This document shows, piece after piece, positions 10,101 through 24,637 of a DNA stretch of 64,000 nt. Within the stretch, counting starts at the first letter, position 1. Each line of letters begins with the position of its first letter. The translations under genes and the position numbers were made by a program. Source of the DNA: an uncultured Gemmatimonadota bacterium. Lineage in GTDB: Bacteria > JAAXHH01. Location of the stretch: NCBI GenBank assembly GCA_964593235.1, contig CAZQGS010000026.1, forward strand, positions 22,133 through 86,132. Reading direction: 5' to 3'. The notes below the pieces were generated by a model. The model saw only the letters and a list, made by a program, of their open reading frames with translations. It was not told the origin of the DNA and ran no database searches.

Positions 10101-10894
10101 TCGTGATCAAAACAGGAGGGAGTAGAGGTATTAATATTGATTACGTTCTTGCGGATCTTGCTTTTCAAACAGAGCCACTTGTGTTTTTGCATGGGGCGTC
10201 TGACGAATTAAATCAAATATCCGAGCGGCTAGGTAAACCTCCTCGAATGGTCACATCGCCTTCTGGGTACACCAGTAGGTACACCGACTCAGGAACCCTT
10301 GATATTTTTAATATGGTATACTGTGGTAAAATAAACACTCGTATCGTTGAAAAACTTCACCAACTGGGGGTTAATGCTGTTGGACTAAGTGGTGTTGATG
10401 GTAGACTTCTTGAGGGTAAAAGAAAATCTACTGTCCGTATCATTGAGGAAGGGAAGAAGAAACTGCTTAGAAATGATTTTACGGGGCGTGTTGAAAAGGC
10501 GAACGTAAATCTTCTTACACTTCTTCTTGGCCAAGGTTATCTACCAGTCGTCAGTCCTCCGGCTATTAGTTATGAAGGTGAAATTATCAATGTCGACGGC
10601 GATAGGGCTGCTGCCGTGATAGCAGAGGGACTCGGAGCTGATAGGTTAATTATACTCTCTAATACACCAGGTTTTCTGAAAGATGCGGATGCCGAAGAGA
10701 CCTTAATACCACGGCTTAACCGAGATGATATTGACGATGTGATAAGGAAATATGCAAGAGGCCGGATGAAGAAGAAACTACTGGGTGCTCGGGAAGCCCT
10801 AGAGGCAGGTGTGGGTACGGTGATTCTTGGTGATGGTCGTATACCCAATCCAGTTACATTAGCTTTGCAGGGTAAGGGCACCGTAATTACGTAG
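10097..10894 (+). CDS. lysZ: [LysW]-aminoadipate/glutamate kinase (ArgB/LysZ amino-acid kinase family)
   Basis: 265 aa. MIVIKTGGS opening and GASDEL..., VVSP..NVDGDRAAAVIAEGLGADRLIILSNTPG AAK-family motifs. Confidence 0.85.
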   Translation: MIVIKTGGSRGINIDYVLADLAFQTEPLVFLHGASDELNQISERLGKPPRMVTSPSGYTSRYTDSGTLDIFNMVYCGKINTRIVEKLHQLGVNAVGLSGVDGRLLEGKRKSTVRIIEEGKKKLLRNDFTGRVEKANVNLLTLLLGQGYLPVVSPPAISYEGEIINVDGDRAAAVIAEGLGADRLIILSNTPGFLKDADAEETLIPRLNRDDIDDVIRKYARGRMKKKLLGAREALEAGVGTVILGDGRIPNPVTLALQGKGTVIT

Positions 10895-10956
10895 GGAAAA
10901 TAAAAATTAATGGTTGTATAGCATAAAGATTGGGATGATAACAGGGGGCAAAAGCC

Positions 10957-12150
10957 ATGATACAGTACAAGGAGATGGAAGATAAAGTCTCTATGGGAAT
11001 TTTGCCAAAGAGAGACGTCGTAATTGTCCGTGGGAAAGGTACCAGATTATGGGATACCGAAGGCAAGGAGTATATTGATTGTGTAGGAGGACATGGGACA
11101 GCGAATATCGGTCATAATCATCCGGTTGTTGTAGAGGCGTTGGTTCGTCAGGCGGAGCAACTTATGATATGTCCCGATATGTTTTATAATAATGTAAGGG
11201 CCAAATTAGTAACAACATTAGCCCAAGTAGCTCCGGCAGGACTAGACCGTCTTTATTTGTGTAACTCAGGGACAGAAGCGGTGGAAGCAGCATTGAAATT
11301 CGCTCGTGTGGCAACTAAGAGAACAGGAGTGATCGCAGCGCAAAGAGGTTTTCACGGGCGGACTTTTGGAGCTCTAAGTGCAACCTGGAATCCTAAATAT
11401 CGAAAGCCATTTCAACCTCTTGTACCAGGTTTCTCTCACGTAAAGTATAACGACATGCAGGCGATTGATTCTGCTATAGATGATGGCACAGCCGCCGTTA
11501 TTTTAGAAGTAGTTCAGGGAGAAGGTGGTGTGCGCCTAGGTACCGAAAGCTACTTAAAGAAAGTGGAAGCCCTTTGCCGAAACCGGGGTTCATTATTGAT
11601 ATTAGATGAAGTGCAAACAGGTTTTGGCAGAACAGGTACTATGTTTGCCTGCCAGCACTACGATATACAGCCAGATATTATCTGCGTTGCTAAAGCAATG
11701 GCAGGTGGATTGCCAGTAGGAGCGGTCCTCTGTTCTGATTTGGTTAAAGAAATTCCAACGATGTCTCACGGTAACACCTTTGGTGGTAGCCCTATTGTCT
11801 GCGCGGCTGCTTTGGGTACGTTGAGTGTACTACAAAACTCAGGGATAATCCAAAATGCCCGAGAGATGGGGATCTATTTTAGAGAACGACTTGAAACACT
11901 AGACCTCAGGATTATCCGAGAGATTCGAGGTCTAGGCCTTATGATTGGACTAGAACTGAAAAGCCGAGTTTCACCGGTATTGAAAGGTCTTATGGACCAT
12001 GGTATATTAGCTTTGCCAGCAGGCAACACAGTACTACGTTTCTTGCCACCTCTATCAATAACAGCAGATGACATTGATCAGGTCGTAGATGCTCTAAAAA
12101 TAGTACTGAAGCCACTGGATAAAATTTCAACAGAAGAATCCACAGAATAA
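10957..12150 (+). CDS. lysJ: Class III PLP aminotransferase (ArgD/LysJ family)
   Basis: 397 aa. GTEAVEAALKFAR, DEVQTGFGRTG, PLP-Lys region (ICVAKAMAGGLP), SHGNTFGGSP. Confidence 0.85.
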   Translation: MIQYKEMEDKVSMGILPKRDVVIVRGKGTRLWDTEGKEYIDCVGGHGTANIGHNHPVVVEALVRQAEQLMICPDMFYNNVRAKLVTTLAQVAPAGLDRLYLCNSGTEAVEAALKFARVATKRTGVIAAQRGFHGRTFGALSATWNPKYRKPFQPLVPGFSHVKYNDMQAIDSAIDDGTAAVILEVVQGEGGVRLGTESYLKKVEALCRNRGSLLILDEVQTGFGRTGTMFACQHYDIQPDIICVAKAMAGGLPVGAVLCSDLVKEIPTMSHGNTFGGSPIVCAAALGTLSVLQNSGIIQNAREMGIYFRERLETLDLRIIREIRGLGLMIGLELKSRVSPVLKGLMDHGILALPAGNTVLRFLPPLSITADDIDQVVDALKIVLKPLDKISTEESTE

Positions 12151-12202
12151 CTAGGATTAGACTGTTCTGTAGGTAAAGATCAATTTAGGGTAGGGAATAT
12201 AA

Positions 12203-13249
12203 ATGAGTGTTCAATGTGACGACCTGGACTTATTGCGTGGCCTAGTCGATCATTACAGTCCTTCTAGGCAAGAAGAAGATGCAGTATCTTTTCTAGTCGA
12301 ATCGATGGAACAGAGAGGTATAAATTCTTATATTGATGGGGCGGGAAATGCAGTTGGGGAAGTGGGTGATGGTTCCCCACATATTGCTCTCGTCGGGCAT
12401 ATAGATACTGTGAAGGGGATTATTCCCGTCCGAGAGAAATCTGGTCGTCTTTACGGTCGTGGAACAGTAGATGCTAAGGGTCCCCTCGCCACATTTGTGG
12501 CGGCCGTGTCTCGGTTTACTAAACTCGATCAAGGTAGGATTACAGTTGTAGGTGCTGTGGAAGAAGAGTGTCCGACATCACGAGGTGCCCGATATCTTGT
12601 TAATCAAATGAAACCAGATCATGTATTTATTGGTGAACCTAGCGGTTGGGATAGTATCACTATAGGATATAAGGGTATCGTTGGTTTCAATTTCAAGTTA
12701 AAACAATCTAATGCTCATTTTGCTGGCAATAATTTACGTTCGGGAGACAAAGCAATAACATTTTATAACAATCTTTTATCCTACCTTAACCAACATGAAA
12801 TCAAGAGTGAATTTGGATCTCCTCGACTTGAACTAAGGAGAATTAATACTCTTGATGAAGGGTTAACAGAAAATGTAGAGGCCTATTTTTCAGTGCGCAT
12901 TCCTCCTGGATATGGAGTGGAAAATCTTATTAACTTTATAGGAGTTCAGTCAGGAGATGCTGAAATAGAATGTGATCAGAAACTAGAGGGTATTATTGCG
13001 AAAAAAAATACTCCGCTAGTCCGGGCTTTGTTGCAAGGCATTCGTCAAGAGGGTGGGCAACCAACTTTCAAGAAAAAGACTGGCACTTCAGATATGTGTG
13101 TCATCGGTCCGGAATGGAAATGCCCCATCGTAGCATATGGTCCAGGAGATTCTAGTTTAGATCATACACCAGACGAACATATAATACTCGATGATTATCT
13201 TCGATCTATCCAAGTAATGACAAATGCGTTAAAATCCCTAATATTATGA
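12203..13249 (+). CDS. lysK: [LysW]-lysine/ornithine hydrolase, M20 (ArgE/DapE/LysK) family
   Basis: 348 aa. HIALVGHIDTV metal-binding motif, GRGTVDAKGPLA, M20 dimerisation-domain insertion. Last gene of the colinear block. Confidence 0.8.
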   Translation: MSVQCDDLDLLRGLVDHYSPSRQEEDAVSFLVESMEQRGINSYIDGAGNAVGEVGDGSPHIALVGHIDTVKGIIPVREKSGRLYGRGTVDAKGPLATFVAAVSRFTKLDQGRITVVGAVEEECPTSRGARYLVNQMKPDHVFIGEPSGWDSITIGYKGIVGFNFKLKQSNAHFAGNNLRSGDKAITFYNNLLSYLNQHEIKSEFGSPRLELRRINTLDEGLTENVEAYFSVRIPPGYGVENLINFIGVQSGDAEIECDQKLEGIIAKKNTPLVRALLQGIRQEGGQPTFKKKTGTSDMCVIGPEWKCPIVAYGPGDSSLDHTPDEHIILDDYLRSIQVMTNALKSLIL

Positions 13250-13324
13250 ATTAACCTCAAAAGTAAAAATTTTGATACAATCTTCCAATGTTTTTATAAC
13301 TTCTTTTTTAATAAACCACTCTCC

Positions 13325-14545
13325 TTAAGTCCTAAGAATTAATTCTCCGATTTCCTTAAGTTGGCCTAAGTTTCTACATTCAAGAACATGGTCACAGTAT
13401 GGATGGTAGGTAGACATGACAGAATCATCGGTGTTCCAATATTGTTGAGGTTCAGGGTTCAGCCATATCATTTTGTGAACCCTGTTCTGTAACTCATCTA
13501 GAACCCAATCTTGGGGATCAAACCAGTTTGTCCGGGCGTCGCCGAGTATGACTAGTACAGTATTCTTAGATAGCGAAGGAAGATATTCGTCGTAGAACTG
13601 GTAAAAGGCCCTTCCAAAATCACTTAGTCCAAAAAAATTGAGCGTATGATCATTTTTAAAATTTTCGACAATTTCTTCAAATGTGTTGTGGTCAAAATTG
13701 TCCGTGACCTCTGTGATACGATCTACGAAAAGAAAACTACGGGCTCGACGGAATTGACTTTGCATTTCATGGACTAATTTTATAAAGAAACGGGCGACTT
13801 CCCAAACAGATCCTGAAACATCACATAATACAACCAATTCATTTTTCTTGATTTTCTGATGTTTGTGTATTATGTGAAAAGGCAGATTACCTGTGCGAAA
13901 ACTTCTTTGAATAGTTTTTTTAATATCGACTCTTCCATGGCCTGACTTTTTGAAGCGTAATGACTTACGTGTGACAAGATTTCGGGCTAAGTCTTCCACC
14001 GCGTCGTAGAGGTTTTCAATTTCACCTGATGGTAATTCCTGGTAAAGATCAATAGTATCGGAGCTTTTGTCCCTTTGCACTCCTGGTTCGGTGGCATTTT
14101 CTGAGGTTTGTTCACCCAAATTAATACGGGCTAGGATTTTCTTGAGGACATCATCTTCTGATTCTTGGCTATCAGAAGTCTCTTCGTTAGTCGAGGTATC
14201 ATTTTGTTTATCTTCGTTATCTGGGGTCCCATTTTCATCATTTTCTGAATGATTTTTAGAATCAGTATGATCTTCGGAACTTTGGTCTATGTCGTTTGGC
14301 AAATTATCACTGTCGTTATTTTGATCCTCTATCTCAACTAGGAAAAATTGTTCAAAAGCTTCTTCAAAAGTGGGGATATCCTCATTAGATTTTATCAAAG
14401 TAGTTCGGAGCGAGGTCTTGAATGTATGGCGTTCAATGAGGGGAGTATGCCTAAGCATTTCAGCTGCATCGAGGGTTTCTGCCATAGAGATGCGAATACC
14501 AGACTGCCGGAGCATTCTGACAAATTCAACGAGACGACAGATCAT
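13325..14545 (-). CDS. VWA-domain protein, CoxE-like (MoxR partner), with acidic low-complexity linker
   Basis: 406 aa. C-terminal VWA with MIDAS-like LVVLCDVSGSV. About 90-aa D/E/N/S-rich region (NDSDNLPNDIDQSSEDHTDSKNHSENDENGTPDNEDKQNDTSTNEETSDSQESEDD). Overlaps the MoxR gene by 20 nt. Confidence 0.75.
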   Translation of the reverse strand: MICRLVEFVRMLRQSGIRISMAETLDAAEMLRHTPLIERHTFKTSLRTTLIKSNEDIPTFEEAFEQFFLVEIEDQNNDSDNLPNDIDQSSEDHTDSKNHSENDENGTPDNEDKQNDTSTNEETSDSQESEDDVLKKILARINLGEQTSENATEPGVQRDKSSDTIDLYQELPSGEIENLYDAVEDLARNLVTRKSLRFKKSGHGRVDIKKTIQRSFRTGNLPFHIIHKHQKIKKNELVVLCDVSGSVWEVARFFIKLVHEMQSQFRRARSFLFVDRITEVTDNFDHNTFEEIVENFKNDHTLNFFGLSDFGRAFYQFYDEYLPSLSKNTVLVILGDARTNWFDPQDWVLDELQNRVHKMIWLNPEPQQYWNTDDSVMSTYHPYCDHVLECRNLGQLKEIGELILRT

Positions 14546-15575
14546 TGTAATTTTCTTTCATGATCCGATCAATATCTTCTCTATCCTTCATAAGTACGTT
14601 CAAGGTACTTGAAAGAATATCGCGCGACAAATTTTCTGCATTAAGGACCACTAATGCCATTGCCCAATCAATTGTTTCCGCAATGCTTGGTGGTTTGCGG
14701 ACGTTCAGTTTTCTAATTTTTTGAACAAAACGGACTACTTGGTTCGCTAGATCTTCGTTAAGGCTTGGGACTTTGCAAAGAACAATCCGAGTTTCCTGGT
14801 CAAACGGAGGATAGTCTATATAGAGATACAGACATCGTCTTCTCAAGGCTTCAGAAAGACTACGATTAGCGTTGCTTGTCAATACTACCAGTGGCCTTTG
14901 AGCAGCAGTCAACGTCCCTAGTTCTGGTATGCTCACCTGAAAATCACTGAGTATTTCCAGGAGGAAACTCTCAAATTCATCGTCAGCTCGATCTATTTCA
15001 TCTATTAGCAAAACAACGGGTTCTGTCGAAAGTATAGCTTCTAGTAGGGGGCGCGGGAGCAGAAAATATCTTGAAAAGAAAGCTTTCCCTTCCTGGTTTA
15101 GTGTTTCCACCGCATTAGCAATAGTCTCAGTCTCGTTTACTAGGTCCCCTATGCGGTCTTTTAGGATCTGTGTGTAAAGTAATTGTTTTGTATATTCCCA
15201 TTCATAAAGTGCCTTGGATTCATCCAGGCCTTCGTAACATTGTAATCTAATTAAACGTCGTCCAAGGGTTACCGAAAGCGTTTTTGCAATCTCGGTTTTG
15301 CCAACCCCAGGGGGTCCCTCAACTAGTAGTGGTTTCTCTAGGCGCTCCATTAAAAAAATTGGCGTAGCCAGATTTGAATCACAGATGTAACCGTGCGATT
15401 CAAACTGCTGTAAAACATCTTTGGCAGATTTGAAAGAAGCCATACTACTCCTGAAAGGATAACTAACCTGTGGGATTATAACGGTCAAAACAAAGGAATT
15501 ACAGTACCTCATTCTCTGAGGATAATAACTGCTCGTGCATCGCCCAAAATTACCAATTATATGACATAATGTCAA
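14526..15575 (-). CDS. MoxR-family AAA+ ATPase (CoxD-like)
   Basis: 349 aa. Walker A LVEGPPGVGKT, Walker B VVLLIDEIDRA, MoxR-type helix-2 insert and sensor regions. Operonic with the VWA protein. Confidence 0.85.
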   Translation of the reverse strand: MTLCHIIGNFGRCTSSYYPQRMRYCNSFVLTVIIPQVSYPFRSSMASFKSAKDVLQQFESHGYICDSNLATPIFLMERLEKPLLVEGPPGVGKTEIAKTLSVTLGRRLIRLQCYEGLDESKALYEWEYTKQLLYTQILKDRIGDLVNETETIANAVETLNQEGKAFFSRYFLLPRPLLEAILSTEPVVLLIDEIDRADDEFESFLLEILSDFQVSIPELGTLTAAQRPLVVLTSNANRSLSEALRRRCLYLYIDYPPFDQETRIVLCKVPSLNEDLANQVVRFVQKIRKLNVRKPPSIAETIDWAMALVVLNAENLSRDILSSTLNVLMKDREDIDRIMKENYNDLSSR

Positions 15576-15734
15576 GTATATTTGATAAGGTTTTTACGAG
15601 ACGTCATGCCGGCAAAAAACCCACCTGATGGGTGTTTAACGTGTTATTTTATAGTTTAAATAGTCCTTGCCGAAATAAGTCCCAAAGCCTATATTGCGTC
15701 TGTCTAGATAACCTTCCAAGGTAAGGGTGATTTT

Positions 15735-16196
15735 ATGAGGAAAAAACAGAAAAAATTTTTAGTTGGTTTTGGGGTTGTAATAGTAGCGATAGGATACCTG
15801 ATCTATACTGGGGTAACCGATGCTACGATGTATTACTTAACTGCGAGTGAACTAGACACGGCTATAACAGAAGGGAATGTTGACTACGGCGAAAATATGC
15901 GGTTGCACGGTAGGGTATTAACTGGATCTATCGAAAAGGGTGAGGTGGGTTCCTTGCAAATCAGCTTTATAGCACATGAGGGGGGCACACAGATCCCTAT
16001 CGTCTACACTGGGGTGGTTCCTGACACGTTTAGAGACGATTCTGAAGTGGTTTTGGAGGGTGGTTACGGGCAGAATGGTACATTTACAGCTCACACATTG
16101 TTTGCCAAGTGCCCATCTAAGTATGAAAGTGACCAAGGATATGGCCAATATGAGAACCTCAAACCAATTCCGCCAGAATCCTCGACTAAGTCTTGA
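15735..16196 (+). CDS. ccmE: Cytochrome c-type biogenesis haem chaperone CcmE, variant with Cys-type CXXXY haem-binding motif
   Basis: 153 aa. N-terminal TM anchor, OB-fold core (VVPDTFRDDSEVVLEG). The haem-binding segment is LFAKCPSKYES (Cys126/Tyr130; Cys codon at 16110-16112) in place of canonical AKHDE-x-Y. ccmABCD lies downstream. Confidence 0.8.
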   Translation: MRKKQKKFLVGFGVVIVAIGYLIYTGVTDATMYYLTASELDTAITEGNVDYGENMRLHGRVLTGSIEKGEVGSLQISFIAHEGGTQIPIVYTGVVPDTFRDDSEVVLEGGYGQNGTFTAHTLFAKCPSKYESDQGYGQYENLKPIPPESSTKS

Positions 16197-16248
16197 ACAG
16201 ATTAGCTCAGAATTACGGTGTTGTTTACTAGAGGAGTAACATCTGGCT

Positions 16249-16848
16249 ATGACATTGTTCGCTTGTGGACTGCTTACATTGGGCGTCCTTGCTTTTATGA
16301 TCGTTCCAATGTTGGAGGGATCATCTCAACGTCGTCCTTGGGCTGTTCGATCTCGGCAGGATGATTTGCTTAAAAAGAAAGATTTTATCTATGCGTCCAT
16401 TCGTGAACTAGACATTGATTTTAATATGGGTAAACTGGCTGCTGAAGATCACAAGTTACTACAGCAAGAGTATATTAATGAGGCATCGGAAGTGCTAGAT
16501 GAACTGGACCAATTTGTTGAGATTGATATGCCCATTGAGGAAAAAATAGAAAAAGAAGTGTTAGATCTCCGAAATAGGAACCCCAAAAGTCCTATCAAAT
16601 CAGACAATAAAGAACCAACACTGGACCATATTGATGGATTAGATGAAACGGAAACTAGTAGTACAGGGAAGGTTGTTCTGTCTGAAGGTCAGCTTTTATG
16701 TAGACATTGTGGCAAACATAACGAGGAATATTCCAATTTCTGTGTCGAATGTGGAACTTCCTTAGAAACATACACTTGTGGAGGTTGTGGAAAGGAAAAT
16801 CAACCTTCAGCTAATTTCTGTTCAGAGTGCGGAGAGAAATTGGGTTGA
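16249..16848 (+). CDS. Membrane-anchored protein with C-terminal double zinc ribbon (CxxC-x16-CxxC-x9-CxxC-x15-CxxC); unknown function
   Basis: 199 aa. N-terminal TM helix (LLTLGVLAFMIVPML), coiled/acidic middle, C-terminal CRHCGK...CVECG...CGGCGK...CSECG. Lies in the ccmE-ccmA interval. Confidence 0.5.
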   Translation: MTLFACGLLTLGVLAFMIVPMLEGSSQRRPWAVRSRQDDLLKKKDFIYASIRELDIDFNMGKLAAEDHKLLQQEYINEASEVLDELDQFVEIDMPIEEKIEKEVLDLRNRNPKSPIKSDNKEPTLDHIDGLDETETSSTGKVVLSEGQLLCRHCGKHNEEYSNFCVECGTSLETYTCGGCGKENQPSANFCSECGEKLG

Positions 16849-16858
16849 TGGAGATCTT

Positions 16859-18025
16859 ATGAAGTGCCAATGGTATTCTAGCCCTTCGGGGCTTTTTATT
16901 TATTATATCAATATTCTGGTTTGCATTTTCTGTTGGAGTGGGGTGACAAAAGCTCAAGAAACGGGAAGCATTGACCTTGTAGTTTTAAATAAAACTACTG
17001 GCCTGCCAATAGCAGGGCACGAGCTGACATTGTTACGTCACAATAGTGAAGAGGAACAAGAAGAGACTCTTTTAAAAGTTGTAACAGATAGTAACGGACA
17101 GTATAAATTTGCTGGCCTACCAGCCGATGAATCCCACTACGTCATCGTTACTCGTTACCTCGAAATACCTTACCTTACAGAGCATATTACATTGGGCCCC
17201 GGGGAACAGCAAACAATAGTACTCGAAGTTTACGATATTACAACAAACGAAAATGAGTTAATTCATAGTGCTATTCATTTGGTAATAGAGACAACTCCAG
17301 ATATTCTTAATATTATGGAAATTATTGTTTTGGATAACAAAAGTAATATGACTTTTGCTCCACCACCCAATTCAGGCTTGGGCCTTATCTACTCTCTTCC
17401 TTCTGCCGCATTTGGTCTCCAACCTATGGTCCAGGGTCTTAGGCATACTGATCGGGGACTTTTATTTTCAGCGCCAGTAAAACCTGGCCCTGAACGAATC
17501 ATTTATACCTACAGCCTTGATAGGACTTCAGTAGACCACAAATTTGTAAGACAGATGGATTACAATATTAGTAGGGTCCAGGTATTGGTTTCCCCAAGTA
17601 CCGAGATTGTAACAGCTGTAAATCTGACCAACGATGGAGAACAACGAATTGGTGATAAGGATTATCTTTTACTCTCGAATCGTGTTGGCCTCCAGAAAGG
17701 GATGTCAGTAGAGGTTGCATTCCCTTATATATTGACTTGGCAGGTAGCTCTGAAGTGGGGAATGCTTGGGTTTGTTATATTAATTTTAATTGGTGGCATC
17801 TTTGTTGGGATTCGAATTAAGCCAGAAAAGTTGAAAAATTTTGATAACACAACCGGTGTCGAGCCAAAAAATAAGCGAAAATACACCGCGATCCTCCATG
17901 CTATAGCTAATTTGGATGATCAAAAAGACGCTGGAATATTAGACGCTAGGACATATAGAAGTCGTAGAGATGGTTTGCAAAAAAGGGCCTTAAGGCTTCA
18001 TCAAAATGGAAGTAAAAGTGAATAA
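16859..18025 (+). CDS. Secreted/membrane protein with CarboxypepD_reg-like beta-sandwich and C-terminal TM anchor; unknown function
   Basis: The ORF track starts at 16778 (overlapping the previous gene by 70 nt). The ATG at 16859 gives a signal-peptide-like N-terminus (MKCQWYSSPSGLFIYYINILVCIFCWSGVTKAQ) and no overlap. Contains the ...VVTDSNGQYKFAGLP motif typical of CarboxypepD_reg domains and a TM helix near the C-terminus (MLGFVILILIGGIFVGI). Its 3' end overlaps ccmA by 20 nt. Confidence 0.5.
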   Translation: MKCQWYSSPSGLFIYYINILVCIFCWSGVTKAQETGSIDLVVLNKTTGLPIAGHELTLLRHNSEEEQEETLLKVVTDSNGQYKFAGLPADESHYVIVTRYLEIPYLTEHITLGPGEQQTIVLEVYDITTNENELIHSAIHLVIETTPDILNIMEIIVLDNKSNMTFAPPPNSGLGLIYSLPSAAFGLQPMVQGLRHTDRGLLFSAPVKPGPERIIYTYSLDRTSVDHKFVRQMDYNISRVQVLVSPSTEIVTAVNLTNDGEQRIGDKDYLLLSNRVGLQKGMSVEVAFPYILTWQVALKWGMLGFVILILIGGIFVGIRIKPEKLKNFDNTTGVEPKNKRKYTAILHAIANLDDQKDAGILDARTYRSRRDGLQKRALRLHQNGSKSE

Positions 18026-18728
18026 TCAATTTACTCCTAGTATAAGATTACAAAACCTAACTAAGGTATACGGTCGTTTTAGGGCATTACGTGGAGTAAA
18101 TCTGGAGATTGCACCAGGAACCTTTTTGGCTCTTTTTGGTCCCAATGGCGCTGGGAAGTCCACCTTACTTAATATGATCGCTGGCCTTATTCAGCCATCT
18201 CGTGGAGCGTTGTTCTTGGATGATATCAATGTTACCCATGGTCGAGACGAGTGCTTAGGAAGCCAAGTTGGAGTATTATCATATGATACTTATCTATACG
18301 ATGAATTGACCGTTAATGAAAATCTCCAATTTTATGGGAAATTATACGACATTGTAGATCCTAGTAAAAAGATAGAAGAAATGTTAGTTGCGGTAGGAAT
18401 GTCTAGCAGAAGTGAAAGCCGGGTTTATACTCTTTCTCACGGAATGCGGCAGCGAGTAGCTATAGCAAGAGCACTTCTGCATGATCCAGATATTTTGTTA
18501 CTGGATGAACCTTATTCTGGGTTGGACCAAGATGCCCTAGTCACCTTAAAGGCAATCCTGACAGCTTATAATAAGACAGTTATTTTAGTAACTCATGACT
18601 TGGATCGGGGACTTGAATTAGCTGATCGAGTCGTTATTTTAAACCGTGGATATGTCGTTTTTGATACCCCCAAGAACGGTTTGACCAGTGATCAGATTAA
18701 ATGTTTCTATAAGGAGCATTCTGTTTAA
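18006..18728 (+). CDS. ccmA: Haem exporter ABC ATPase CcmA
   Basis: 240 aa. Walker A GPNGAGKST, LSHGMRQR signature, Walker B ILLLDEP. Followed by ccmB/ccmC. Confidence 0.85.
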   Translation: MEVKVNNQFTPSIRLQNLTKVYGRFRALRGVNLEIAPGTFLALFGPNGAGKSTLLNMIAGLIQPSRGALFLDDINVTHGRDECLGSQVGVLSYDTYLYDELTVNENLQFYGKLYDIVDPSKKIEEMLVAVGMSSRSESRVYTLSHGMRQRVAIARALLHDPDILLLDEPYSGLDQDALVTLKAILTAYNKTVILVTHDLDRGLELADRVVILNRGYVVFDTPKNGLTSDQIKCFYKEHSV

Positions 18729-18750
18729 GCCTATAAAGAGAACAATCTGA

Positions 18751-19431
18751 ATGAGATATTTACTTGCTAAATCATGGCAAATATACCGAAAAGATATGAT
18801 AGTAGAATACCGAACGCGCGAGCGTGTTGTGACTATGTTTGTTTTTTCGTTAATTGTAATGGTCATTTTTAATTTTGCTTTTAACATTGGGTCCAACTTT
18901 ATAGAAAGGGTTGTACCTGGAATGATCTGGGTCGCATTTTCTTTTGCAGGAATGCTGTGTGCGAGTCGATGTTTCGCTTCTGAAAAAGATCGAGCTACTT
19001 TTGATGGCCTACTCCTTGCTCCCATAGATAGAGGATCTATATTTCTTGGTAAATTATTTGGTAATATTACCCTTATTAGTTTAGTCCAATTGGCAGTACT
19101 TCCCCTATTTATTATTTTTTTCAACATGACAATCTTCCCTTATTTAACTAAACTGTTAGTTATATTTTTCTTGGGAACAATTGGATTTTCATCAATTGCC
19201 ACGCTGTTTGCAGCTGTGGCTATCAATACAAGAATGCGGGATGTTATGTTGCCAGTTTTACTGCTACCTGTGGCATCACCTATTTTAATTGCCTTGGTAG
19301 AGACAACAAGGACAACTTTTGAGGGTGGAGACTGGCAGGATATGACAAACTGGATAAGATTACTTTCGGTATTCACAGTCGTTTTTTTGGTAGCGTCGGT
19401 CATGTTGTTCGAGTATATCCTGGAGGAATGA
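18751..19431 (+). CDS. ccmB: Haem exporter membrane protein CcmB
   Basis: 226 aa, six predicted TM helices. CcmB-like ...FASEKDRATFDGLLLAPIDRGSIFLGK... segment. Confidence 0.8.
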   Translation: MRYLLAKSWQIYRKDMIVEYRTRERVVTMFVFSLIVMVIFNFAFNIGSNFIERVVPGMIWVAFSFAGMLCASRCFASEKDRATFDGLLLAPIDRGSIFLGKLFGNITLISLVQLAVLPLFIIFFNMTIFPYLTKLLVIFFLGTIGFSSIATLFAAVAINTRMRDVMLPVLLLPVASPILIALVETTRTTFEGGDWQDMTNWIRLLSVFTVVFLVASVMLFEYILEE

Positions 19432-19434
19432 ACC

Positions 19435-20157
19435 ATGGCAGAATTAACAACTCGTTTGCGCATAACACCGTTCGGAGTTATTTGTCTCGTTGGATTAATT
19501 ATATCGTTGTACCTTTCATTAATTTGGGCACCCAGGGAGCGGGTTATGGGGGACGTGCAGCGGATAATGTATTTCCATGTTGCTACAGCATGGATTGCAG
19601 AGTTAGCTTTTCTTTTAGTGGGTATTTCGAGTATTATTTATCTGTGGCTTAGAGAACGTAAATGGGATATTGTGGCTTATAGTGCTGCCGAAGTGGGCTT
19701 TGTATTTTGCTGTTTCGTAATGATAACTGGACCAATCTGGGGGAAACCAGTCTGGGGGACTTGGTGGACATGGGATCCACGTCTCACGTTTTCAATGATA
19801 TTGTGGCTTATATATGTAGGTTACTTAATGCTTCGGGTTTATGGTGACGATATCCCTCAGGTGAAAACCTTTCTTGCAGTACTTGGCATATTAGGTACTT
19901 TAGACATCCCGTTTATTCATTTCGCTACAATGTGGTGGCGGGGGTTACATCCCGATTCTCTAGTTATGAGCGAGGAAGGATTGGGGGCAGGGATGGAAGT
20001 TGATATGCGCATTGCTCTGGCTGTGTCGGCTATTGTTTTTACCTTGTTTTTTTTCTATCTTATGGGACGTCGAATGGCCTTGGAACGTTTACGAGATGAA
20101 ACCGAAGATCTGCGAGATCGTTTAGAATATATGAATAATGATAATATCAGAAATTAA
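19435..20157 (+). CDS. ccmC: Haem lyase/exporter component CcmC
   Basis: 240 aa. Tryptophan-rich WWD motif GKPVWGTWWTWDPRLT and conserved His in flanking loops. Confidence 0.85.
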   Translation: MAELTTRLRITPFGVICLVGLIISLYLSLIWAPRERVMGDVQRIMYFHVATAWIAELAFLLVGISSIIYLWLRERKWDIVAYSAAEVGFVFCCFVMITGPIWGKPVWGTWWTWDPRLTFSMILWLIYVGYLMLRVYGDDIPQVKTFLAVLGILGTLDIPFIHFATMWWRGLHPDSLVMSEEGLGAGMEVDMRIALAVSAIVFTLFFFYLMGRRMALERLRDETEDLRDRLEYMNNDNIRN

Positions 20158-20234
20158 TTTGTAGTTCAAAGATATCAGGAATCATTTTTGTTTAACAGTC
20201 ACCAAGGATAAAATGTTTAAAGGAGTTAATAGTT

Positions 20235-20396
20235 TTGGATCAAAATTTCTGGTATCTATTTTCTGCTTATACCTTAATATGGGTTGGACTTTTCGTTTAC
20301 CTTTTCACCTTAGCAAGTAGAGAGAAAAAGTTAGAGACAGAAGTGGTCCAACTAAAGAAGTTATTAGAAGAGTTGGAGAAAAAATTTAAAGAGTAG
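20235..20396 (+). CDS. ccmD: CcmD-like small membrane protein (TTG start; absent from ORF track)
   Basis: 53 codons, LDQNFWYLFSAYTLIWVGLFVYLFTLASREKKLETEVVQLKKLLEELEKKFKE: one TM helix then a charged tail, the CcmD architecture. AAGGAG RBS 9 nt upstream of the TTG. Directly follows ccmC. Confidence 0.55.
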   Translation: MDQNFWYLFSAYTLIWVGLFVYLFTLASREKKLETEVVQLKKLLEELEKKFKE

Positions 20397-20520
20397 GCGA
20401 TCTATACCATATCAGCAGAGTCATTTTTTTCTTCTCTAGAGGGCTGGCCAGGTCCTTAAAAGTGCTCGGTTCCATCTGTTTACCCCCTGGCTTTTCTTAA
20501 TACACCTGGAAGTATCCCCT

Positions 20521-21315
20521 ATGGCGGATCGGTCAGCAAGCATAGCACCAGACTATTTTTCAAATATACATATAGTCCTTGTAGAACCTAGTGTCCCTGG
20601 CAATATTGGTGCGGTTGCTAGAGCAATGAAAACAATGGGTCTTTCAAGTCTTATTTTGGTTAACCCAGTTGAGTTTCGTCATGAAGCAGAGGCTCGTTGG
20701 ATGGCCCACGGTGCTGGTGATATTCTTGATACGGCTAAAGTAGTCTCTACCGTGGGGGAAGCAGTTGATGAATTTGCTCTGGTTGTCGGAACAACTAATC
20801 GCACGCGAAGTCCTTGGTTAAACCCTATAAAACCACTTGAAGAAGGTCTGGCCGAATTAATTGCTGTAGCTTGGTCCCAACCATCTGGAATATTATTTGG
20901 ACGGGAAAAAAGTGGATTGTTGAACGACGAATTGCAACGGTGCAATCTTATTGTTAGAATTCATTCAGCAGTAACCTACCCCTCTTTAAACTTATCTCAA
21001 TCAGTTATGGTGTGTGCCTATGAATTATTTCGTTTAAGTTGTGAAGCACCACAACAATCTAAAACAAAACTAGCTGACAATGAAGATGTAGAGAGGATTT
21101 GCCATCGAATGAACCAGGTGTTACTCCGTATAGGATTTGTTGGCCAACCAACAGAAGATACTTTTATGCGATCTATACGGCGGGTTTTTCGCCGCAGTCT
21201 GCGCCTCGAAAAACGTGATGTAGCAACTTTACATAAGTTTTGTAATGAGATTGATTTGTATGTAGACCACTGCAGTGGATCATCAAAATCTCATTTGTCG
21301 AATTCAAAAGAATAG
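20521..21315 (+). CDS. SpoU/TrmH-family RNA 2'-O-methyltransferase (TrmJ-like)
   Basis: 264 aa. SPOUT motifs (IVLVEPSVPGNIGAVARAM, LLFGREKSGL, NLSQSVMVCAYEL). Confidence 0.75.
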   Translation: MADRSASIAPDYFSNIHIVLVEPSVPGNIGAVARAMKTMGLSSLILVNPVEFRHEAEARWMAHGAGDILDTAKVVSTVGEAVDEFALVVGTTNRTRSPWLNPIKPLEEGLAELIAVAWSQPSGILFGREKSGLLNDELQRCNLIVRIHSAVTYPSLNLSQSVMVCAYELFRLSCEAPQQSKTKLADNEDVERICHRMNQVLLRIGFVGQPTEDTFMRSIRRVFRRSLRLEKRDVATLHKFCNEIDLYVDHCSGSSKSHLSNSKE

Positions 21316-22049
21316 AGTATCGATTCCAGACAAAGTCCATGAGGAGGGGCATTAATACCGGCAATTTTCCTATCTTTGGCACTAAGAATCTCGGTCATTG
21401 CCTCTGGAGAGCGATGTCCTCTACCGATATCTACAGCTGTACCTACGATGGTTCGTACCATATGATGAAGAAATCGGTTCGCTTCGACTTGCAGACGTAG
21501 TTCATCTCCCATCTCTACCCAATCAAGTTTTCGTATTTCGCAGTTCGTCCCGTCGGTTATAGATGAGGCCTGGCAGAACGACGTGAAATCATGTTGGCCA
21601 ATCAGAGCTTTACAGCTATTACGTAAGGCTTCAAGATCTAACGGATAGGTTACATGCCAAGCAAAATGTCTATGGATAGCACTAGGTCGTCGTATGATTC
21701 GATAAATATACCTTCGCCCTAAAGCACTAAAGCGAGCATGGAAATCTTGAGAAACTTCCATTCCGTCCAATATGCGTAAATCAGGTGGTAAAACACCGTT
21801 TAAACTTTTCTTAAGTTTGTTTATGTTAACATCCAGGGTTGTCTTGAAATGGACAACCTGTCCACTGGCATGCACTCCAGCATCAGTGCGTCCAGCTGCA
21901 GTTACTCGAGTTTCCGTTCTGAGGATGGTCCGAATTGCTTCTTCAAGCACCGATTGAACCGTGCGTCCTTGTGATTGAATCTGCCATCCTAGAAAATTGG
22001 TTCCGTCGTATTCAATTTTGAAAGCAAGGTTTGGCATAATGAAAAACAA
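21291..22049 (-). CDS. truA: tRNA pseudouridine(38-40) synthase TruA
   Basis: 252 aa. KIEYDGTNFLGWQIQ, catalytic Asp context (AAGRTDAGVHASGQVVHF). Start probably at the second Met (MPNLAF). Confidence 0.9.
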   Translation of the reverse strand: MFFIMPNLAFKIEYDGTNFLGWQIQSQGRTVQSVLEEAIRTILRTETRVTAAGRTDAGVHASGQVVHFKTTLDVNINKLKKSLNGVLPPDLRILDGMEVSQDFHARFSALGRRYIYRIIRRPSAIHRHFAWHVTYPLDLEALRNSCKALIGQHDFTSFCQASSITDGTNCEIRKLDWVEMGDELRLQVEANRFLHHMVRTIVGTAVDIGRGHRSPEAMTEILSAKDRKIAGINAPPHGLCLESILYSFEFDK

Positions 22050-22052
22050 AAG

Positions 22053-22865
22053 TCAGTTCAAAGTTATGAAAACATTACCAAGAATTAGTATAACCAAAAG
22101 TGCTGCAGTAGTGATTATAGCGAAGTAATCGTTTCGGGTTAGGATCATAACACGGTACTGAGTGCGACCTGTACCTCCGCGGTAACATCGAGCTTCCATA
22201 GCGACAGCTAATTCTTCAGCTCTCCGGAAGGCTGAAATCATTAACGGAACCAATAACGAGGCTATTTTTCGTAGTCTCTTTATTGGATTGCCAGTAAAAT
22301 CAGCCCCTCTGGACATCTGAGCTTTTTGAATACGGCCTGCTTCTTCAACTAAAGTTGGGATGAATCTGAGTGCTATAACCATCATTATTGCCAACTCATG
22401 AGCTGGTAAGCCAATTTTTTCAAAAGGTTTAAGAAGCCGTTCAATCCCATCTGAGATATCTAATGGGGCTGTGGTCAACATCAAAAGGGCTGCGATTAGT
22501 ATAATGACAATAAGGCGTATACAGAATAACATACCTTGCAATATTCCTTCCCAAGTTAAACCTGGAATCGTGATTTCGTAGATGATTACATTTATACCAG
22601 GCGTAAAACAGGCGTGGGCAGCAAAGGTGATTATAAGTAAAAATCGGAAAGCTTTTAGGTTATTTAAAGCAATGTTCATTGGAACTTCAGAGATCCGTAT
22701 GACAATAAGGACCACGGTTAGTATAAAAATGAATAGGAACAGTGATTGTGCCCAGATTAATATCCCCATAAATGCTAGGCACATACACAGCTTAGTTCGA
22801 GGATCGAGACAATGGATCATCGACACGGCTGGATAGAATTGTCCCAGAGTAAGATTCTGTAGCAT
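22053..22865 (-). CDS. ecfT: ECF transporter T component (EcfT/CbiQ family)
   Basis: 270 aa polytopic membrane protein with EcfT coupling motifs (AMEARCYRG..RT). Immediately upstream of truA. No ecfA genes adjacent. Confidence 0.7.
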   Translation of the reverse strand: MLQNLTLGQFYPAVSMIHCLDPRTKLCMCLAFMGILIWAQSLFLFIFILTVVLIVIRISEVPMNIALNNLKAFRFLLIITFAAHACFTPGINVIIYEITIPGLTWEGILQGMLFCIRLIVIILIAALLMLTTAPLDISDGIERLLKPFEKIGLPAHELAIMMVIALRFIPTLVEEAGRIQKAQMSRGADFTGNPIKRLRKIASLLVPLMISAFRRAEELAVAMEARCYRGGTGRTQYRVMILTRNDYFAIITTAALLVILILGNVFITLN

Positions 22866-23059
22866 GATTAAAAGGATGGAGGTTGAGTGGTTTTAATTTA
22901 TCGATCCTACAAATTTAGGTTGTAAAAAAGAAAGGCAAACAAGAACTCTTAACTGTTAAGGTAAGAGTTAGGTTAGTCTAATAGATTGAAAGTTAACCTT
23001 GGTTGACCGAAATCCCTTTTATCTTATTCAATTTTAGTTTAGGAAAACCAGATATTTTG

Positions 23060-23108
23060 TCTTTTTAAAAAATATTAAAACAAAAACACCATCCATAACG
23101 ACGGATGG
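23060..23108 (-). terminator. Putative intrinsic terminator for the minus-strand gene 23363..24637
   Basis: CCATCC-ATAACGAC-GGATGG hairpin (23089-23108), followed on the minus strand by a T-rich run (plus-strand A-run 23067-23088). Confidence 0.4.
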
Positions 23109-23362
23109 CGTATATTGTCTTTAGAAAGAGTTTCTCCCAACACAGGTTGGCATAAGTATTTTTAGGAGAACCTGTCTGGAACAGTGGTTGTCCCCCCAAG
23201 TATTTCTGGCGTCCTCTATTCTGGTGAGGCATGTCATAGATACTCAGAGCAGGATTCCCTATAGTAAAGCAAAGGTTCTTTTAAAATAACTTTGCCCTTT
23301 ACCTGTGTTGGATTCTCCAGATTATATTATGCTTAACAAAGGAAAGCAATACTTTAATTGGG

Positions 23363-24637
23363 CTATGTTTTCCGTTTCTTTTTCTTTGCTGCCGGGAAGA
23401 GAACATTATTTAGAATAAGGCGGTATCCAGGGGAGTTTTTGTGGAGACTAAGATTTGTTGGGGGGTCGCCTACGAGATGTTCTTCATCTTCTGGATCGTG
23501 CCCTCCGTAAAATGTGAAAGTTCCCGCTCCGTAGTTCCCATGTATATACTTGATGTAGTCAGTCTCCGATTCCTTAGCCAGAACTACTGTCGTAGGTTTA
23601 AGGACCTGTCTACTGAAAGTGGTAGATAGTCCATAAAAACCAGCAATATAGTTTACGTGGTTTTGTGTAAGCATCGACGGAACAGGGTCATATTTAGCCG
23701 AAAAATCAAAAAGAGTAAATGGACCGGTTGGTATCTTAGTAGCGTTAACCTGGTTGACATCAATATTCGAAAAGGAACCGATAAAAGGGTTTAATTGTAG
23801 AGTAAAATCTTTAAAAGCAAAAGTTTGATCAAATTCCAACTTAGATTGGGCATCCGGATCAATAGGAGTATGATCGTATTCTGGTGCAACTATGTCGGTA
23901 TGATAGGAGGATAGAGCGATTTCTATGGTTTCTGTTGCAGCACACATTGCAAATAAAAAACCGCCGTTCCCCACATATTTTTGAATAGATCGTGCAACTG
24001 CTTTTTTTAATTCGGCAACTGTAGGATATCCCTGGTCCCTTGCTAGTGTTTCATCAGTCAGTTGCTGCTGTTGGTACCAAGGCATTCTGTGATAGCTGTA
24101 AAATTTGCTATATTGGCCAGTGAAATCTTCGTGGTGAAGATGTAACCAATCGAATTGATTCAGTTTCCCACCCAGTACCTCTTTGTCAAAGATGGTTTGG
24201 TACGGTACCTCAGCATATTTCAACGCCATGGTTACAGCGTCATCCCATGGGCGCTTATCAGGGCGAGTATACACTGCTATTTTGGGTACTTTTTCTAGTA
24301 TTACGCGGTCCATATTGTTGTCTTCAATAAGATCGTAAATCTGAGTTAACTCTGCTCCACTAAGGATTTTAAAACTAACACCTCGTAAATAACATGAGCG
24401 AGCCCGGTCAGTTGTTGGGTCCATAATAAATGAACCACCACGGTAGTTTAGTAGCCATTCGACGGTATAACCTTTTTCTAAAGCCTGAAAAGCAATGCCA
24501 TAAGCTTTGAGATGATCCTGCTGCTCCAAGTCCATTGGTATTAGTATCTTTTGAGCACTAGTGGTAAGCGGTACTATACAAAATCCCACAAATAAGAGAA
24601 TGAGTTTAGACATTTCTACTTCCCTAAGGTATGCCAA
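23363..24637 (-). CDS. Secreted protein of unknown function (signal peptide; possible class-I glutamine-amidotransferase-like/ThuA-like fold)
   Basis: 424 aa. MSKLILLFVGFCIVPLTTSAQ signal peptide (start probably at the internal MSKL). GGFLFAMCAATE nucleophile-elbow-like segment. Lys-rich C-terminus. Confidence 0.4.
   Translation of the reverse strand: MAYLREVEMSKLILLFVGFCIVPLTTSAQKILIPMDLEQQDHLKAYGIAFQALEKGYTVEWLLNYRGGSFIMDPTTDRARSCYLRGVSFKILSGAELTQIYDLIEDNNMDRVILEKVPKIAVYTRPDKRPWDDAVTMALKYAEVPYQTIFDKEVLGGKLNQFDWLHLHHEDFTGQYSKFYSYHRMPWYQQQQLTDETLARDQGYPTVAELKKAVARSIQKYVGNGGFLFAMCAATETIEIALSSYHTDIVAPEYDHTPIDPDAQSKLEFDQTFAFKDFTLQLNPFIGSFSNIDVNQVNATKIPTGPFTLFDFSAKYDPVPSMLTQNHVNYIAGFYGLSTTFSRQVLKPTTVVLAKESETDYIKYIHGNYGAGTFTFYGGHDPEDEEHLVGDPPTNLSLHKNSPGYRLILNNVLFPAAKKKKRKT

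Follow-up and report, generated by a model that had tools for sequence, protein, structure and literature searches.

A conserved gene pair of bacterial ccm operons as a candidate two-subunit, CcmI-like component of cytochrome c maturation

The 64,000-nucleotide stretch of contig CAZQGS010000026.1 analysed here (the window throughout this text) belongs to an uncultured Gemmatimonadota bacterium, has a G+C content of 41% and carries a co-directional, tightly packed cluster of cytochrome c maturation (ccm) genes on its forward strand (15735-20396). Within this cluster we focus on two adjacent genes, open reading frames 1 and 2 (ORF1 and ORF2), which encode what we call the small (199 amino acids) and the large (388 amino acids) subunit. 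Together they represent a conserved ccm-operon gene pair found across at least three bacterial phyla (Gemmatimonadota, Acidobacteriota and Chloroflexota) and in unassigned lineages as well, and they very probably function in cytochrome c maturation. The cluster starts with ccmE (15735-16196; Pfam CcmE, E = 2.3e-24), followed by ORF1 (16249-16848, as in the program's ORF listing), ORF2 (16859-18025), the ATP-binding cassette (ABC) ATPase gene ccmA (18006-18728; Pfam ABC_tran, E = 6e-35), ccmB (18751-19431; Pfam CcmB, E = 2.4e-31), ccmC (19435-20157; TIGR01191, E = 2.3e-42, with the motif WGTWWTWD) and a ccmD of the alternative family (20235-20396; TIGR04391, E = 2.5e-11, above the cut-off). The initial annotation had placed the pair between ccmE and ccmABCD, co-oriented with them and with the second gene overlapping ccmA by 20 nucleotides (nt), which the coordinates bear out. 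The encoded haem chaperone CcmE ends in FAKCPSKYES and is thus of the Cys (CPSKY), or CXXXY, type, in which a Cys replaces the haem-binding His. A motif scan of the 64-kb window found no ccmF, no ccmH, no WCxxC thioredoxin motif and no CXXCH-containing open reading frame of at least 100 amino acids.

The mechanically called start of ORF2, a GTG at 16778, lies within ORF1. The plausible start is the ATG at 16859, which is located 10 nt past the ORF1 stop and has a GGAG 5 nt upstream. We placed the ORF2 start there because of this GGAG, the spacing after ORF1 and a signal peptide that then aligns with that of every homologue. The pair is translated together with ccmE and ccmABCD from one tightly packed operon. 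In line with the earlier statement that the locus lacks terminators, terminator-like sites within the cluster are at chance level (7 vs 4.3 ± 2.2), as are promoter-like sites; that statement nevertheless passes over one terminator-like GC hairpin at 16880-16893 (+), AGCCC-TTCG-GGGCT followed by the T-run TTTTTATTTAT, which lies 20 nt inside ORF2. The hairpin overlaps the codons of the conserved SPSGLF stretch in the ORF2 signal peptide and could be due to chance, act as an attenuator or serve as a device setting the ORF1:ORF2 ratio.

AlphaFold models of both proteins were built from family alignments. For ORF1 (mean predicted local distance difference test score, pLDDT, of 73) the model contains one transmembrane (TM) helix at residues 5-22 (16261-16314), which aligns to the first TM helix (TM1) of CcmI, followed by a predicted cytoplasmic helical hairpin (residues 30-59 and 65-93) and a further helix (residues 96-109), together encoded at 16336-16575. 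The hairpin, modelled with pLDDT values of 90-97, turns at the invariant G61 and holds the conserved core motif Y..IR.L...…G.L..ED...L..EY, while residues 113-145 are modelled as a disordered acidic linker. According to the positive-inside rule, with RRPWAVRSR following the TM helix, the N-terminus faces outwards and the C-terminus inwards. The protein ends in a double zinc ribbon (residues 146-199, 16699-16842; CRHC...CVEC and CGGC...CSEC), and the initial annotation was right in describing a membrane-anchored protein with four CxxC pairs, since both Pfam DZR (PF12773; E = 3.4e-10, 40.4 bits vs a gathering cut-off of 27.3) and Zn_Ribbon_1 (PF13240; E = 1e-11, 44.7 bits vs 25) pass their thresholds. 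All eight zinc-ribbon cysteines are invariant among 27 ORF1 homologues, and ORF1 has no cysteines outside the ribbons. An apparent loss of the ribbon in the homologues P0172-P0176 was rejected, as their C-termini look like out-of-frame translations of the ribbon region.

ORF2 (mean pLDDT of 80) begins with a signal peptide (residues 1-32, 16859-16954, from the homologue alignment), which in the homologues ends in AQA/Q-type cleavage motifs. In the model it is followed by two periplasmic domains. Domain 1 (residues 35-125, 16961-17233; strands within residues 35-124, pLDDT of about 90) is a transthyretin/CarboxypepD_reg-like beta sandwich, whose match to CarboxypepD_reg (PF13620; E = 1.7e-6, 28.7 bits) stays under the gathering cut-off of 32.3. 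Domain 2 (residues 134-287, 17258-17719) is a larger beta sandwich that matches no Pfam family and holds the most conserved motifs of the large family, …LRFSLP… and …P.PG…Y.Y. A C-terminal TM helix (residues 294-318, 17738-17812) leads into a predicted cytoplasmic helical hairpin (residues 336-357 and 363-382, 17864-18004) with the motif IA.LDD...G.L....Y..RR..L. Of the architecture proposed earlier, the signal peptide, a beta sandwich and the TM anchor are present in the model, the assignment of this sandwich to CarboxypepD_reg being sub-threshold in Pfam; the cytoplasmic hairpin had been overlooked. The positive-inside rule places the beta sandwiches in the periplasm and the zinc ribbons and the two hairpins in the cytoplasm. 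An internal duplication giving rise to the two sandwiches was rejected (probability of 0.8%).

Profile searches against PDB sequences gave no significant match for either protein, the ORF2 matches to NOMO and transthyretin-like proteins being weak. In Foldseek searches against the PDB, the best matches of ORF2 were ribophorin I/Ost1 structures (8b6l_O, 6s7o_E and 6c26_1; E = 4e-10, template modelling score (TM-score) of about 0.3, identity of 9-12%), the other match being the N-terminal domain of M1 aminopeptidases (TM-score of about 0.3). Ribophorin I/Ost1 is a non-catalytic subunit of oligosaccharyltransferase, a membrane enzyme that modifies unfolded translocated polypeptides, and like ORF2 it combines two beta sandwiches (lumenal here, periplasmic in ORF2), a C-terminal TM helix and a short cytosolic helical tail. 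We regard this likeness as an architectural analogy only and not as a sign of common descent. Across 150 members of the large family, Cys occurs at less than 20% in every aligned column and His and Met are nowhere general; the conserved residues are aromatic residues, Gly, Pro and Asn. The lack of conserved Cys, His or Met in the periplasmic part points to a binding or scaffold role rather than to catalysis, redox chemistry or haem ligation.

CcmI possesses two TM helices, a cytoplasmic loop and a periplasmic tetratricopeptide repeat (TPR) domain, and as a subunit of CcmFHI it acts as an apocytochrome chaperone that also binds apoCcmE (PMC3884852); its TM1-adjacent cytoplasmic region has been called leucine-zipper-like in Rhodobacter (PMC3884852). 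The N-terminal part of ORF1 has a single NCBIfam match, TIGR03142 (CcmI N-terminal domain), in which residues 5-75 align to model positions 5-69 (E = 0.0043, 17.4 bits). TIGR03142 is likewise the top or leading match for small proteins of two other lineages (E = 2.8e-4 and 0.024), and among 84 small proteins compared with 18,950 models it is the commonest family (21 proteins at E ≤ 0.01, best 1.6e-6). A TM-plus-tail fragment of P0185, a member of the large family, even passes the cut-off of this model (31.3 vs 29.3 bits, E = 2e-7). Seven canonical CcmI N-termini (CcmI_N) were collected from annotated records of plasmids and chromids; two stem from Pseudomonas plasmids, the others from Cupriavidus, Psychrobacter, Methylophaga, Aeromonas and Rhizobium (one each). 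Profile alignment with hhalign yielded a probability of 94.2% for the small proteins against CcmI_N (P = 1.1e-7, 69 columns), of 93.8% for the tail of the large proteins against CcmI_N (P = 1.8e-7, 81 columns) and of 96.4% for the small proteins against the large-protein tail (P = 1.4e-9, 78 columns), with reversed-sequence controls at 5.4%, 0.4% and 2.5%. In addition, a hidden Markov model (HMM) of the seven N-termini matched only ORF1 among all six-frame open reading frames of the window (E = 6.4e-4). The segment common to the pair and CcmI comprises TM1 and the cytoplasmic stretch, with the pattern Y(R/D)..I..L......G.I...(D/E)Y.

Judged from these alignments, the anchor modules of ORF1 and of the ORF2 tail are homologous to the N-terminal module of CcmI (TM1 plus cytoplasmic loop), a relation that is probable rather than proven; by the same sequence comparison, the tail hairpin of ORF2 is a paralogue of the ORF1 hairpin. 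The initial annotation had stated that neither protein resembles any described Ccm component, which no longer applies to the TM-plus-hairpin part of either. Like CcmI/CycH, and like the C-terminal half of E. coli CcmH, the pair has a TM helix in N-out orientation that leads into a helical segment in the cytoplasm; membrane anchoring, a large periplasmic domain and a gene position after ccmH or ccmF are shared with CcmI/CycH, too. In contrast to CcmI/CycH, the pair is split into two polypeptides, its anchor module is duplicated with the second copy placed C-terminally on the large protein, its ectodomain consists of two beta sandwiches in place of TPR and Ig_CycH domains, and it often has extra zinc ribbons on the cytoplasmic side. 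The Pfam models TPR_CcmH_CycH (PF23914) and Ig_CycH match canonical CcmI proteins with high scores. The possibility that the ORF2 sandwiches correspond to Ig_CycH (PF23892) was considered and rejected (hhalign probability of 0.1-0.4%). ORF1 by itself has one TM helix and a cytoplasmic C-terminus; a second TM helix within one chain occurs only in P0291 and P0267, two naturally fused proteins. As currently defined, the CcmI family does not include the pair, which lacks its TPR and Ig domains and its second TM helix.

These fusions connect the two proteins directly. In P0291 (686 amino acids), a TM helix, a hairpin, two zinc ribbons, a TM helix, the sandwiches, a TM helix and a hairpin follow each other, so that the small and the large protein are joined in one chain; P0267 is organised in the same way without the ribbons. 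In both, the segment equivalent to the ORF2 signal peptide is a second TM helix, giving the order TM1, hairpin (with or without zinc ribbon), TM2, periplasmic domains, TM3, hairpin, which matches the topology of CcmI up to TM3. In a third protein, P0272, it is the tail of the large protein that bears a small-type hairpin together with a zinc ribbon.

Word-indexed searches returned homologues of ORF1 and ORF2 only from Gemmatimonadota metagenome-assembled genomes; 95 homologues were found for ORF1, all Gemmatimonadota at that search sensitivity, and at least 22 ORF1/ORF2 homologue pairs come from contigs that are identical in length. A 527-kb marine metagenome contig (MDTE01068216.1) is 98.8% identical across window positions 10853-24022. 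All Gemmatimonadota loci recovered (L002, L103, L104 and L105) share the order small-large-ccmA-B-C-D after ccmE, with L104 ending before ccmE, and the pair hence stands beside ccmE wherever this neighbourhood was recovered in related genomes. The CcmE proteins of L002, L103 and L105 carry the same CPSKY motif as the window. Between the window and L002, L104 and L105, identity varies along the operon, being 84-87% for CcmB and CcmC, 71-73% for CcmE, 63-66% for CcmA, 59-65% for the large and 49-57% for the small protein. The G+C content of L002 is 62%. Upstream of ccmE, the window encodes a divergent MoxR-type AAA ATPase (14526-15575, reverse strand) and a VWA/CoxE-like protein (13325-14545, reverse strand); L002 has the same two genes at the same site, plus a DUF4159 gene.

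A distant match, P0081 (29% identity), led to the wider family. Its gene comes after an ORF1-like gene (118 amino acids, no zinc ribbon), the locus being arranged as actCDE, ccmH, ccmF, (cupredoxin), small, large, thioredoxin. Large-family members were counted by an alignment-based search followed by an exhaustive HMMER search of 1.84 billion representatives, expressed as clusters at 50% identity. At E ≤ 1e-30 there are about 2,664 clusters with full-length matches of about 400 amino acids, at E ≤ 1e-10 there are 7,373, and at E ≤ 1e-3 there are 19,631, the last figure probably including domain-only matches. None of these clusters has a member with a functional name, neither protein matched a family with an established unrelated function, and full-text literature searches returned no description of the pair.

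To describe the gene context in Chloroflexota, 80 loci (Dehalococcoidia, SAR202 and others; one genome per species) were chosen solely by similarity to the large protein, and their flanks were annotated by BLAST. The underlying scan used the FLRFSLP motif and returned only Chloroflexota, so that other phyla are represented by single contigs. In 79 of the 80 loci ccmF lies directly upstream of the large-gene block, with ccmH upstream in 76, a small protein encoded between ccmF and the large gene in 78 and a CcmG-like thioredoxin gene directly downstream in 75; ccmABC is nearby in a single locus (L079). Genes of alternative complex III (actC/actD/actE-like) directly precede the ccmH-ccmF-small-large-thioredoxin block in 62 of the 80 loci (set L009-L088; for example L010, 2534-11263), which suggests co-expression of a maturation machinery with its multihaem client. 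The one large gene without ccmF or ccmH (L057, 9818-10957) is preceded by a gene for a 209-amino-acid coiled-coil membrane protein and has a thioredoxin gene downstream.

These counts bear on the idea, put forward in the initial annotation, that the pair substitutes for missing CcmH/CcmI thiol handling or for an apocytochrome chaperone. In its thiol version, the pair would replace CcmH and/or CcmG in handling the CXXCH thiols of a system without CcmH. The window, with neither ccmH nor a thioredoxin gene, would fit, as would the frequent absence of CcmH from System I*, the variant Ccm system with Cys-type CcmE (PMC3601427). However, the pair co-occurs with CcmH and the CcmG-like thioredoxin in nearly all of the Chloroflexota loci counted above and with CcmH also in L005 (Terriglobales, Acidobacteriota), L006, L008 and L102, the cysteines of ORF1 are restricted to the predicted cytoplasmic ribbons, and the large family lacks any column with Cys at 20% or more. 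Neither ORF matches CcmH (PF03918), whose periplasmic LRCxxC thiol motif sits in a three-helix bundle, and a scan of the window for LRCxxC was negative. We therefore consider a thiol-handling function barely credible, while the part of the proposal that concerned CcmI and apocytochrome chaperoning survives. Some of the CcmH proteins encoded beside the pair carry a non-canonical active site instead of LRCxxC, namely LICTCGC in the Terriglobales locus (L005, 8696-9202) and LICPVCP and LNCPLCQ in L001 (4159-4692) and L006 (1340-1834).

The zinc ribbon varies in occurrence among the small proteins. A single ribbon is present in 29 of the 78 Chloroflexota small proteins and absent from about 60%; single ribbons also occur in L006, L100 and L102 and none in L001, L003, L005 and L008. 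With or without ribbon, the CcmI-like core is always kept. In about 37 loci (a subset of L038-L088) the large protein stops about 9-13 residues past the TM helix, without the cytoplasmic hairpin, and the partner small protein, of 94-107 amino acids, is always free of zinc ribbons. The ribbon is found in 29 of the 40 Chloroflexota loci with a tail and in 0 of the 37 without, 77 loci in all (Fisher p = 1.8e-12, a test that ignores phylogeny); these groups might be no more than two clades. This co-variation could also be read in terms of signalling, with the pair acting as a TM sensor or regulator resembling zinc-finger anti-sigma factors, in which the sandwich senses haem, apocytochrome load or a metal and the ribbon signals to gene expression. 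A cytoplasmic ribbon on a single-pass protein with a periplasmic partner does recall anti-sigma and signalling architectures. Yet no sigma factor or regulator is adjacent in any examined locus, the pair is packed within structural ccm operons, and the ribbon is absent from so many small proteins that retain the CcmI-like core; we thus judge a regulatory function to be highly unlikely.

The pair occurs in several further arrangements. The Terriglobales contig L005 has the order ccmF-ccmH-small-large-ccmE-ccmABCD, its CcmE carrying the Cys-type motif KCASKYE. Clusters of proteobacteria and actinobacteria carry a TPR-type ccmI right behind ccmH, and it is this slot that the pair occupies in L005. 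L006 and L007 are arranged as ccmF-ccmH-thioredoxin-small (one zinc ribbon)-large-ccmD-like, L100 and L101 as ccmE-ccmF-small (zinc ribbon)-large-ccmABCD, L099 as ccmF-large (zinc ribbon on the tail)-ccmABCD, and L008 and L102 as act genes-ccmH-ccmF-small-large-thioredoxin. In each of the nine called loci, the small gene either overlaps the large one or is separated from it by no more than 37 nt. A gene for a membrane-anchored Cupredoxin_1 protein lies between ccmF and the small gene in one high-GC lineage (L001, 6773-7579; L003, 8831-9559), accompanied in L003 by one for a 99-amino-acid membrane protein. The large-family protein P0185 (L006, 2915-4711; L007, 1169-2965) has an N-terminal TM helix and two cytochrome c domains (CVRCH, CAACH); on two independent contigs, a putative chaperone is thus fused to a domain that looks like a client. 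The CcmE-like gene upstream of ccmF in L100 (1-315) ends in VLKKAPHYRL, with neither His nor Cys at the haem-binding position, which may reflect a frameshift, an assembly error or a further CcmE variant.

Taken as a whole, linkage to ccm genes is kept through at least three gene orders and down to an identity of about 20-25%, which argues strongly for a function of the pair in cytochrome c maturation. The same breadth, extending over at least three phyla, makes it scarcely conceivable that these are unrelated envelope proteins which merely travel with ccm genes and have no maturation function, an explanation in whose favour only L057, as 1 of 80 Chloroflexota loci without ccmF or ccmH nearby, can be cited. 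Accordingly, the two genes are not a local insertion, as first assumed; they are dedicated parts of the ccm locus, and their earlier designation as accessory ccm genes is supported by their place in ccm clusters of Gemmatimonadota, Acidobacteriota, Chloroflexota and unassigned lineages.

Which arm of the pathway they serve is a separate matter. The pair might belong to haem delivery, as an accessory of CcmABCD-CcmE for loading or releasing CPSKY-type holo-CcmE, for instance by holding CcmE close to CcmC or by controlling when it is released. In keeping with this, the window and all Gemmatimonadota relatives place the pair between ccmE and ccmA, overlapping ccmA, every carrier with an intact ccmE (the window, L002, L103, L105 and L005) has a Cys-type CcmE, and canonical CcmI itself binds apoCcmE (PMC3884852). 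Nevertheless, the Chloroflexota pairs (79/80) follow ccmH-ccmF and precede the thioredoxin gene, with ccmABC near only one of them, the pairs of L005, L099 and L100 come directly after ccmF or ccmH, and the homology is to CcmI, the partner of CcmFH. A function in haem delivery is hence unlikely in our view, yet a fair rival, and the specific tie to a CXXXY-type haem-delivery arm suggested at the outset is not supported, since elsewhere the pair mostly stands directly after ccmF or ccmH, i.e. with the ligation arm.

We instead favour, with some confidence, the interpretation that the pair constitutes a two-subunit, non-TPR equivalent of CcmI, which scaffolds the haem-ligation complex or chaperones the apocytochrome. 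Linkage to ccmF and ccmH, which holds family-wide (79/80 Chloroflexota loci, L005, L006, L099 and L100), is consistent with this role. So is a search with an HMM of the CcmI periplasmic part, which detected no TPR-type CcmI in the window or within ±10 kb of 87 loci. In such a complex, the two paralogous anchor modules would pair in the membrane and the cytoplasm and would attach the complex to CcmF (joined by CcmH in carriers that have it) and/or CcmE, a mode of action also assumed for the N-terminal part of CcmI within CcmFHI. In the periplasm, the sandwiches would hold unfolded apocytochrome c, or CcmE, at the site of haem ligation and thereby stand in for the CcmI TPR domain in the role it has in Rhodobacter and Pseudomonas, and the zinc ribbons would be an optional cytoplasmic add-on. 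More tentatively, and with less confidence than in the CcmI-like role as such, this two-subunit complex, and not a TPR protein, may be the standard third ligation partner of non-proteobacterial System I (Chloroflexota, Acidobacteriota, Gemmatimonadota and others). A duplicated CcmI membrane/cytoplasmic module would then carry a sandwich ectodomain holding apocytochromes or CcmE, and ribbons and hairpins would couple ligation to an event in the cytoplasm, for example haem supply or delivery of the apocytochrome by Sec.

Several points weigh against a CcmI-like role. The TIGR03142 score of ORF1 lies under the curated cut-off (17.4 vs 29.3 bits), and the similarity to CcmI spans only some 70-80 residues of TM helix and amphipathic hairpin, a kind of segment that is prone to convergent similarity. 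The hairpin also gives weak, below-threshold matches to SHOCT (PF09851, a short C-terminal domain) and GvpG (E of 4e-4 to 1e-2), with which it shares the pattern ...LDD....G.I...EY..RR..L, and may be a generic oligomerisation hairpin and not one specific to CcmI; compared with these, the TIGR03142 matches are more frequent and stronger and include the TM helix. Neither ORF1 nor ORF2 matches TPR models at E ≤ 0.1 (canonical CcmI: 1e-20 to 1e-25), the periplasmic domains show no similarity in sequence to either the TPR or the Ig_CycH domain of CcmI, and the structural matches of ORF2 are those of generic beta sandwiches, so that apocytochrome binding is purely inferred. The negative search for TPR-type CcmI covered the window and ±10 kb around 87 loci, and these genomes may encode a canonical CcmI elsewhere. 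In the window itself the pair neighbours the haem-delivery genes ccmE and ccmA and not ccmF. The cytoplasmic tail is missing from roughly half of the large proteins in Chloroflexota, and hairpin-hairpin pairing therefore cannot be universal. Finally, sources that name family members call them hypothetical, zinc-ribbon or carboxypeptidase-regulatory-like proteins.

Other known systems help to place the pair. NrfG, a TPR partner of the NrfEF haem lyase that is either soluble or anchored, is thought to present the substrate apocytochrome. As a dedicated accessory of a CcmF-type haem lyase it resembles the role proposed here, although as a TPR protein it has no sequence or fold relation to ORF2 that we could find. 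The overall setting resembles System I* (Allen et al. 2006; Goddard et al. 2010; reviewed in PMC3601427 and PMC9084895), in which CPSKY is the commonest variant CcmE motif (PMC3601427). The window shares this motif and moreover has an alternative-type CcmD and no ccmH. As described, however, System I* consists of CcmABC(D)EF with or without CcmH/CcmI and includes no pair of beta-sandwich and zinc-ribbon proteins, and the pair is not tied to the loss of CcmH.

The pair can thus be seen as a module of ccm clusters that is widespread but so far unannotated, best classed as a CcmI-like component that is split in two and has an ectodomain of another fold than TPR. Holding the apocytochrome and presenting it to CcmF is the least understood step of System I, and work on it has been confined to TPR-type CcmI from a small number of proteobacteria. 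CcmI or CcmH has been described as missing from archaea and many bacteria, and whether other proteins take their place is an open question (PMC9084895, PMC3601427). The pair offers a concrete, testable candidate for such a replacement, with thousands of clusters that include abundant marine groups (SAR202, other Dehalococcoidia and marine Gemmatimonadota). If the interpretation is correct, only the membrane/cytoplasmic module of CcmI would be conserved and the substrate-binding ectodomain would be interchangeable. It would also give a name to a large family of proteins that annotation pipelines list as 'hypothetical' or 'carboxypeptidase regulatory-like', and would allow the capacity for cytochrome c maturation to be better inferred from metagenome-assembled genomes.

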